Source of the DNA: Salarias fasciatus
Taxonomy: Eukaryota
Reading direction: 5' to 3'
DNA: 64,000 bases
Assembly: GCF_902148845.1 (NCBI RefSeq)
Contig: NC_043762.1
Span: 29,026,760 to 29,090,759 of the forward strand
Shown: in pieces, positions 10,898 through 11,537 of the stretch
Layout of the letters: each line of letters starts with the position of its first letter
How positions within the stretch are numbered: position 1 is the first letter of the stretch
Position numbers and translations under genes: made by a program
Notes under the pieces: model-generated
What the model was told of the DNA's origin: nothing
Databases searched by the model: none
What the model saw: the letters and a program-made list of their open reading frames with translations, nothing else

Positions 10898-11537
10898 CTC
10901 TGTCCTTCGTTAGAGCAGTTATCAGGCTCTCCCCCTTCTGGAGCTCCTTCCTCTCCTGCTCATCTTCCTCCTCCTCTTCCTCTTCATCCTCTCTGTCCTG
11001 GCTCTGCTCCTCATCCTCATTCTCCTCCTGGCTCTGCTCCTCATTCTTCTTCTCTTCCTGCTGCTCCGCCATGTTCTGCTCTTCCTCATCTTCCTCCTGA
11101 TGCTCCAAGTCTTCATTCTCCTCATCCTCCCAGCCCTCCTCCTTTTCGTCCAGATCCCCCATCTGCTCCTCCTCATACTCTTTATCCTCCTGGTCCCCAG
11201 AGTCCTCCTCTTCCAGATCTTCAGAATCCTCCTCTTCCTCCTGCTCTCCGGATTCCTCCTCCTCCTTCTCTTCCTGACTCTCCACCTTCTTTTCATTCTT
11301 CTCATTTTCTTGCAGTTGTGAGAGCTTCTCCTCCTCATCCTCCATGTCCTCATCTTTCTGATCTTCCTCTGCTTTCTTTGCCTTCTCTTCCTCCTCCTCC
11401 TTCTCATCAGTTGTCTCTTCCTCCTCATCACCTTCCTGCTCCTCCTCCTCCTCCTTGTCCTCCTCATATATCTCTCCCTCCTTCATGGTGACGGTGCTGA
11501 AAGCTGAACTGAGACTTCCTTTGGAGCCCACGCTGAA
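10898..11537 (-). CDS. tep1: TEP1 large acidic exon (640 nt, about 213 codons, E/D/K-rich)
   Basis: Acceptor tcctctcttgcag|TTCAGC and donor GACAGAG|gtattta. The peptide runs FSVGSKGSLSSAFSTVTMKEGEIYEEDKEEEEEQEGDEEEE ... QERKELQKGESLITALTKDR. It sits where human TEP1 has a short acidic stretch (CRESDASMDSDASMDSEPTP ... RRKIHSGSVTAL). Confidence 0.75.

Follow-up and report, generated by a model that had tools for sequence, protein, structure and literature searches.

Is a 640-nt exon that codes for a stretch half made of glutamate and aspartate a true part of its gene, and if so, how might it have arisen and what, if anything, would it do? The question is raised by the tep1 gene of the fish Salarias fasciatus, in a stretch of 64,000 nt (contig NC_043762.1 of assembly GCF_902148845.1, forward-strand positions 29,026,760 to 29,090,759) that we call the window and whose own numbering is used below. 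TEP1, the telomerase/vault protein component 1, is a STAND-type protein that combines TROVE, DUF4062/TeTIR NADase and NACHT domains with WD40 propellers. Its fourth-from-last coding exon in the window, at 10898..11537 on the minus strand, is hyper-acidic. The answer that we favour, and hold to be probable as a whole, is that this is a genuine coding exon in which the D-A loop joining two blades of the last propeller has been inflated by in-frame slippage, with a product that is most likely tolerated.

The acidic exon has the anatomy of a genuine coding exon of tep1. It comprises 213 codons plus 1 nt, with 5′ phase 0 and 3′ phase 1, and is joined in frame to both neighbouring exons (11537 to 10898) through canonical AG and GT signals. 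The acceptor AG (11539-11538) and its polypyrimidine tract TTTGTCCTCTCTTGC together occupy 11538..11554 on the minus strand; the intron ends in ...TTTGTCCTCTCTTGCAG, followed by the first exon bases TTCAGC, and the pyrimidine fraction is 0.75 over the 20 nt upstream. The donor GT (10896..10897, minus strand; CAGAG/GTATTT) is weak, at 4.6 bits versus 5.3-9.1 for the neighbouring exons on a rough position weight matrix. Frame 0 is open for all 213 codons, while the two other frames contain 4 and 20 stops. The earlier note on this DNA had described just such an exon, of about 213 codons and 640 nt with intact splice signals and an open frame, and its boundaries proved exact to the nucleotide; the Pro-rich (10751-11491, plus strand) and Arg-rich (10922-11467, minus strand) open reading frames (ORFs) that it had attributed to the same DNA read in other frames both exist and are indeed that.

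The open frame is not a by-product of composition, because shuffles of the exon are almost never stop-free in frame 0 (1 of 20,000 mononucleotide and 1 of 5,000 dinucleotide shuffles). Base content also differs strongly between the codon positions, with 59% G at position 1 and 73% A at position 2, and the purine asymmetry of 0.79 is the highest of any 640-nt stretch in the window (mean 0.50, standard deviation 0.04). Glutamate accounts for 86 residues, followed by aspartate (22), lysine (20), glutamine (18) and serine (14), so that E+D amount to 51% (50.7%) and K+R to 11% (10.8%).

Within the exon, three parts can be told apart on the minus strand. The first 18 codons (11484..11537), encoding FSVGSKGSLSSAFSTVTM, form a conserved 5′ part that encodes the C-D turn plus strand D of blade 5; its aligned counterparts among the orthologues are FAMGPKSHLNQAMGTVLL and equivalent sequences. 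The last 12 codons, encoding GESLITALTKDR, together with the first base of the next codon (10898..10934), form a conserved 3′ part that corresponds to strand A of blade 6 and carries the motif xxITAxxxD, nearly invariant among orthologues. Between them lies the acidic core of 182 codons (10935..11480; EGEIYEED...KELQK), which has a net charge of -87, 58% E+D, and neither proline nor cysteine. Both ends of the exon align in every orthologue; the 182 residues between them are a pure insertion without counterpart, their place being taken in other teleosts by about 10-15 residues.

That the gene is tep1, as the earlier note had proposed, is borne out by matches to three Pfam families, TROVE, DUF4062 and Beta-prop_TEP1_C, and by collinearity with TEP1 of the characiform Acnodon (2618 amino acids), which yields 29 collinear tblastn blocks running from 58167 down to 8562. 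TEP1 hallmarks, WD40 signatures among them, are spread over minus-strand open segments from about 8.3 kb to 59 kb of the window. Two exon ORFs match TROVE, one at 50616-51068 with 59.7 bits and one at about 46664-46792 with 45.8 bits, and DUF4062 is matched by an exon at about 39780-40080 (50.5 bits). The ORF at 37267-37473 contains a P-loop, GGAGEGKT, recognized by eye; single-exon fragments from there gave no Pfam NACHT match, and the region is collinear with residues 1138-1390 of Acnodon TEP1. The closest database proteins carry the name telomerase protein component 1 or tep1.

The last ten exon segments, all on the minus strand, were set by splice signals under the guidance of orthologue alignments. 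Joined, they form one 1638-nt ORF that ends in TGA, and a seven-exon set is likewise open to this stop. Their spliced product matches Beta-prop_TEP1_C with 135.6 bits (cut-off 32) over profile positions 1-73 of 73; the acidic exon lies inside the C-terminal WD40 region, again as the earlier note had it. Upstream of the acidic exon, the chain consists of the 3′ part of a first segment taken without a determined acceptor (17654-17592), the exons of blades 1 to 4 of the last propeller (16268..16394, 15473..15603, 15268..15392 and 12272..12415, respectively), and the exon just before the acidic one (11828..11927, ..WHVTVRIHAIIRDDDSGVWLLGEEDGTVVIGFL), which contributes strands A-C of blade 5. Downstream follow the exon for strands B-D of blade 6 (10637..10719, (E)FVVCGDMEGNMWFNRPPEGYSWSNKKL), the penultimate coding exon (8640..8744, VHSDRITQLRLTDTTIISASLDRTVKLWDRSSKKQ), which has a Beta-prop_TEP1_C match, and the last coding exon (8298..8417), with its TGA at 8300-8298.

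Where the insertion sits in the fold was read from an AlphaFold model of the 374 C-terminal residues of the Gymnothorax TEP1 orthologue, built with an 11-sequence alignment; the loop was mapped onto it through the orthologue alignment. The model has a mean predicted local distance difference test score (pLDDT) of 79, a predicted template modelling score (pTM) of 0.68 and 32 strands, equal to eight four-stranded blades, and its top matches in the PDB are the eight-bladed designer propellers Tako8 (best) and Ika8, with template modelling scores of up to 0.80. Searches of the PDB by sequence and by fold returned generic WD40 proteins only, with no TEP1 propeller structure among the matches. The loop corresponds to model residues 251-260 (pLDDT <50), between E242-248, which is strand D of blade 5 and the counterpart of FSVGSKGSLSSAFSTVTM, and E265-271, which is strand A of blade 6 and the counterpart of the xxITAxxxD motif. 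It thus separates strand 21 from strand 22 (of 32), is followed by three further blades and is the sole extended low-confidence segment within the blades; the other parts with pLDDT <50 are the N-terminal residues 1-16 and residues 64-69, where the model lacks a blade-1 strand. On this model, the acidic core is predicted to be an insertion in the D-A loop joining blades 5 and 6 of the last propeller. Since the loop connects two blades of one propeller, it is no inter-propeller spacer, and the suggestion in the earlier note of a charge spacer between WD propellers fails on both the alignment and the model. The D-A loops of a canonical WD40 propeller are found on its top face, the usual ligand-binding face, and by analogy the acidic loop should emerge there.

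A comparison of loop length across teleosts, which the earlier note had proposed, sets the window apart. Measured between the end of the ...GF(L/I)F strand and the VCGD strand, the loop has 214 residues in S. fasciatus and about 35-121 elsewhere: 38 in the transcript-derived protein P0001, 39 in Umbra pygmaea, 38 each in Coryphaenoides rupestris and Thalassophryne amazonica, 37 in P0010, about 35 in Micropterus salmoides, 44 in Albula, 57 in Acnodon oligacanthus (KAL7832341.1) and 121 in Hoplias malabaricus (tep1, XP_066536272.1). In the cyprinids Onychostoma and Anabarilius, about 50 residues of acidic EEP/EEQ sequence were read by eye at the loop, and the sequences retrieved for paddlefish and bichir lack an acidic stretch there. 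With 35-39 residues in five other teleosts, the percomorph Micropterus among them, the lineage-specific acidic expansion that the earlier note had suspected is supported, and the exon has grown from about 38 to 213 codons in the Salarias lineage by added glutamate and aspartate.

P0001 is a 269-residue protein from a 1251-nt Logan contig (SRR19345899) of another fish. The contig is a spliced transcript, containing at least seven of these tep1 exons without introns and a 3′ untranslated region with AATAAA, and its version of the acidic exon consists of 38 codons, FAMGPKSHLNQAMGTVLLEADEEEKKDCMLIAATMNRD. Positions 1-20 of this contig are the Nextera/Tn5 mosaic-end adapter AGATGTGTATAAGAGACAG, that is, untrimmed library sequence. 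The short forms bear a small acidic seed (ADEEEKKD, GDEEEK, NDEEKRS) exactly at the expansion point, which in P0001 is encoded by GAG GCC GAT GAA GAG GAG AAG AAA GAC. For human TEP1, the earlier note gave only a short acidic stretch at this place, quoted as CRESDASMDSDASMDSEPTP.

The Hoplias insertion consists of EEP/HEE repeats rich in proline and cysteine, and that of the window is free of proline. As the two sequences are unrelated, the two large expansions are independent. The loop has expanded separately, with acidic sequence of another kind, in Characiformes (Hoplias) and, more modestly, in Acnodon and the cyprinids. Independent acidic expansions in several fish make the loop a recurrent hot spot and not a one-off. 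In the same protein, there is a second acidic low-complexity hot spot, located in an earlier propeller: Gymnothorax javanicus (KAJ8272571.1, P0006) has an E/G/S-rich repeat of 260 residues there (residues about 625-884), and Albula (P0031) has an insertion of at least 73 residues, with none at the corresponding place in the window protein (23569-23835 compared). Near the other end of the gene, 5′ tep1 exons at 58282-59120 (minus strand) encode a Ser/Leu-rich repeat region and a further, shorter acidic stretch, EDEDYEDIEMDLEDEFPELD, which is also present in the Acnodon orthologue and is thus conserved, unlike the acidic loop exon.

How the loop may have grown is suggested by its repeats. Tandem Repeats Finder reports overlapping degenerate arrays with periods of 3, 6, 9, 12, 18, 21, 24, 27 and 30 nt and 64-87% matches; the period is a multiple of 3 in 16 of the 17 rows (the exception being 17 nt), and copy spacings within the repeat families of the exon are all multiples of 3. 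The youngest visible duplication is a degenerate 30-nt tandem repeat at 10978..11086 (minus strand; about 3.8 copies of a unit that reads roughly EEQSQEENED), within which lies the longest exact internal repeat, a 19-nt duplicate with copies 30 nt apart. Runs of glutamate are broken by many different residues, namely Q, K, S, G, L, M, N, W, Y, H and T. Because the copies are degenerate, most of the growth is not recent. These frame-preserving periods and spacings agree with the replication-slippage product within coding sequence that was among the possibilities raised in the earlier note. An ancestral D-A loop of about 10-15 residues with a short acidic seed (NDEEKRS or ADEEEKKD) would have been inflated by about 176 residues, in frame, as GAG/GAA-rich units of 3-30 nt slipped or were duplicated time and again and then took up point substitutions. 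What results would be a floppy polyanionic loop, its net charge near -87, tolerated but not required, at a surface site under weak constraint. A permissive surface loop combined with a mutation-prone purine-rich seed may then be why acidic expansions recur in other fish. Low-complexity acidic expansions of surface loops are common and usually neutral, and the acidic loop is an extreme example of this familiar class. A captured domain or a transposon as the source was considered and rejected: the exon has no Pfam family match, and among the 8,000 candidates sharing most words with it, the sole significant similarity was to one TEP1 orthologue. With neither a Pfam family nor foreign similarity, the exon is not a captured domain.

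The composition of the core places it deep in the disordered, polyanionic regime, in line with the disordered acidic character that the earlier note had assigned to it. Net charge per residue is -0.48, the fraction of charged residues 0.69, mean hydropathy 0.19 versus an Uversky boundary of 0.585, and sequence entropy 2.76 bits; only 9% of the residues are hydrophobic. An ER/K single alpha-helix (SAH) domain was also considered, as such domains are likewise rich in E and K and AlphaFold draws the acidic exon as long isolated helices; SAH domains need, however, roughly equal E and K/R for salt bridges from i to i+4, and the charge imbalance of the window's loop excludes this class. With 11% K+R versus 51% E+D, charge repulsion should disfavour a stable helix.

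Several observations weigh against the account of a real, tolerated and disordered loop, and the alternatives are best judged together with them. Neither the protein collection nor the indexed contigs yielded a transcript or protein match from the same species. Word-indexed protein searches, for which the flanking exons and the complete spliced C-terminus served as queries, gave distant TEP1 orthologues only, and exact look-ups of the ORFs likely to be called by a gene finder in the three relevant frames of this DNA gave no match. The annotated donor is weak, moreover, and an internal cryptic donor (AAG/GTGATG, 11430..11431, minus strand) scores higher on the same rough matrix (7.1 versus 4.6). 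Lying 106 nt into the exon, that is, 1 modulo 3 and in the phase of the full exon, it would keep the frame when joined to the next exon, and 640 nt is unusually long for an internal exon beside neighbours of 83-144 nt. The acidic core could accordingly be absent from the mature protein, removed by use of the 11431 donor, as an internal exitron or by skipping of the whole exon. We regard this as very unlikely. Splicing from the 11431 donor would deprive the protein of its conserved strand A (ESLITALTKDR), which hardly varies among the orthologues; the length of the exon, 1 modulo 3, means that skipping would frameshift the three conserved terminal exons downstream; and an in-frame exitron is unlikely, as the internal combinations of donor- and acceptor-like sites break the frame or remove strand A. 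The AG dinucleotides of the core are nearly devoid of a pyrimidine tract (median fraction 0.15), and the one site towards the 3′ end that does resemble an acceptor (exon position 633) again breaks the frame or costs strand A. That 182 low-complexity codons are stop-free and hold both conserved ends in one frame also argues for inclusion, as does the 121-residue Hoplias expansion kept as coding sequence in RefSeq models. In the other fish, the orthologous short exon is included in the spliced transcript contig from SRR19345899. A high density of GAR is typical of purine-rich exonic splicing enhancers, and the (GAR)n sequence probably acts as one, which would aid recognition of the long exon and may compensate for both its weak donor and its unusual length. 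Even less credible, to the point that we give it hardly any weight, is an artefact or a decaying gene, in which a GA-rich repeat was mis-sized in the assembly or a tep1 pseudogene happens to be still open. Low-complexity purine tracts are difficult to assemble, and no independent copy of the locus was found by the exact ORF look-ups; the tract, however, is not a pure repeat. Its longest purine run is 25 nt and its longest exact repeat 19 nt, so read-level assembly should be unambiguous, and the rest of tep1 is intact, collinear and spliced in frame.

Granting that the loop is made, its state and purpose can be read in more than one way. AlphaFold, given the exon alone, draws two long helices with a pLDDT of about 70-87 instead of coil. 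That model is unreliable out of context, because its pTM is 0.27 and the known beta-strand ends are also turned into helix; in our reading, it shows no compact fold, leaves the secondary structure uncertain and is no evidence for a fold or for an SAH domain. The placement on the top face follows from general WD40 topology and not from model coordinates. All the independent expansions at the loop are acidic, furthermore, which could reflect selection for negative charge instead of neutrality. On this line of thought, the loop would be a selected functional module, a polyanionic arm, placed on the ligand-binding face, that would act as a nucleic-acid mimic or as a binder of basic partners; it might compete with vault or telomerase RNA, dock on the vault-cap ring, or serve as an autoinhibitory lid on the STAND NADase sensor domain. 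Independent acidic expansions at one loop (the window's 214 residues, Hoplias with 121 of EEP type, Acnodon with 57, cyprinids with about 50) and a short acidic seed in most teleosts examined speak for such a module. So do the proposal that the TEP1 WD40 domains sense an as yet unknown signal controlling NACHT oligomerization and a TIR-like NADase (bioRxiv 10.64898/2026.05.01.722283; 10.64898/2026.09.21.753143) and the positively charged exterior ring of the vault cap (PMC12915596), which could attract a polyanion. Set against this, loop length varies between about 35 and 214 residues and the core contains no conserved motif, most sampled teleosts, a percomorph included, keep the short form, paddlefish and bichir lack the acidic stretch, and a purine-rich seed plus slippage accounts for the acidic bias without selection. 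We therefore consider a selected module unlikely. A bolder version, for which the odds seem to us poor, would make the loop a convergent regulatory element of the TEP1 STAND machine: an arm of about 180 residues, mimicking nucleic acid on the terminal sensor propeller, that would tune the TIR-like NADase in certain fish by gating access of ligand or vault RNA or by tethering to the vault-cap ring. Literature searches returned no description of the acidic loop or of acidic insertions in fish TEP1.

In-frame inflation of a tolerated D-A loop thus remains our preferred explanation. As a single case, the acidic loop matters little, but it marks a loop of the terminal TEP1 propeller as structurally permissive and recurrently expanded in teleosts. 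TEP1 is now being recast as a STAND-type NADase with its WD40 domains as the presumed sensor, and the natural variants of 35-214 residues become a ready series for asking whether the top face matters. The 640-nt purine-rich internal exon with its weak donor may also serve exon-definition studies of GAR-type enhancers. There is a practical side as well. Several NCBI fish models (P0008, P0011, P0163, P0164 and P0165) are short C-terminal tep1 fragments that start in or just before the loop, and the M. salmoides tep1 model bears the name 'mitochondrial division protein 1-like'. Automated annotation thus seems frequently to break tep1 at the acidic-loop region, an annotation problem of fish tep1 (models starting in or near the loop, one of them misnamed) for which the acidic loop offers an explanation.

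Transposon remnants abound in the introns and flanks of tep1. In one intron, at 18379-20044 (minus strand), two adjacent ORFs match RVT_1 (22.7 bits, below the cut-off) and a GIY-YIG endonuclease (23.2 bits), a domain layout that resembles a Penelope-like retroelement. Pieces of a DDE_3 transposase of the Tc1/mariner type and of a reverse transcriptase occur at 872-1375 and 51902-52249. The intron between the exons at 15268 and 12415 holds a tandem repeat of PELHPGATPRSYT-like units (14021-14539, minus strand) that is open in all three frames, and a (CA)n/(TG)n microsatellite, visible as THTHTH and CVCVCV ORFs, lies at about 12100-12200, within the intron that immediately precedes the exon at 11927. 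A large palindrome is formed by 4242-5036 and 5430-6258, about 2 kb past the tep1 stop codon; it is an inverted duplication of about 800 nt in four collinear pieces that are 92-99% complementary, with 393 nt between the inner arms. The ORFs on its two strands match each other, which hints at a repeat element present in two inverted copies.

Among known systems, the closest in composition are the C-terminal tail of HMGB1, prothymosin-alpha, the A2 tract of nucleoplasmin and ANP32, whose disordered tracts dominated by D/E bind basic proteins or compete with nucleic acid. The acidic core shares their D/E dominance, low hydrophobicity and large negative charge. Those tracts, however, are terminal tails or linkers of conserved length with documented partners, whereas the tract in the window is an internal propeller loop, hypervariable between species, with no known partner. 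In domain architecture, the nearest parallel is APAF-1, which like TEP1 has the order effector-NACHT-WD40 and whose propellers bind cytochrome c; it is not known to have a comparable polyanionic insertion, and we know of no ligand of the TEP1 propellers and no described role for the loop. The TEP1 propellers have been proposed to be the signal-sensing, autoinhibitory part of the protein (bioRxiv 10.64898/2026.05.01.722283). The nearest relatives of the acidic exon are its own orthologues. The ancestral short exon, as seen in P0001, Umbra, Coryphaenoides, Thalassophryne and Micropterus, fits it in boundaries and phases, has the same conserved flanking strands and carries its seed at the identical position, yet the loop there spans 35-39 residues compared with 214 in the window. 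With Hoplias XP_066536272.1 and Acnodon KAL7832341.1, the window shares the gene, the loop, the flanking strands, the acidic low-complexity character and the coding annotation. It differs in sequence, being rich in E/Q/K/D and devoid of proline where the Hoplias/Acnodon type has EEP/HEE repeats rich in proline, cysteine and histidine, and in degree: the loop of S. fasciatus is 1.8-fold longer than the longest other example, that of Hoplias, and its E+D content is 51% versus 33%.

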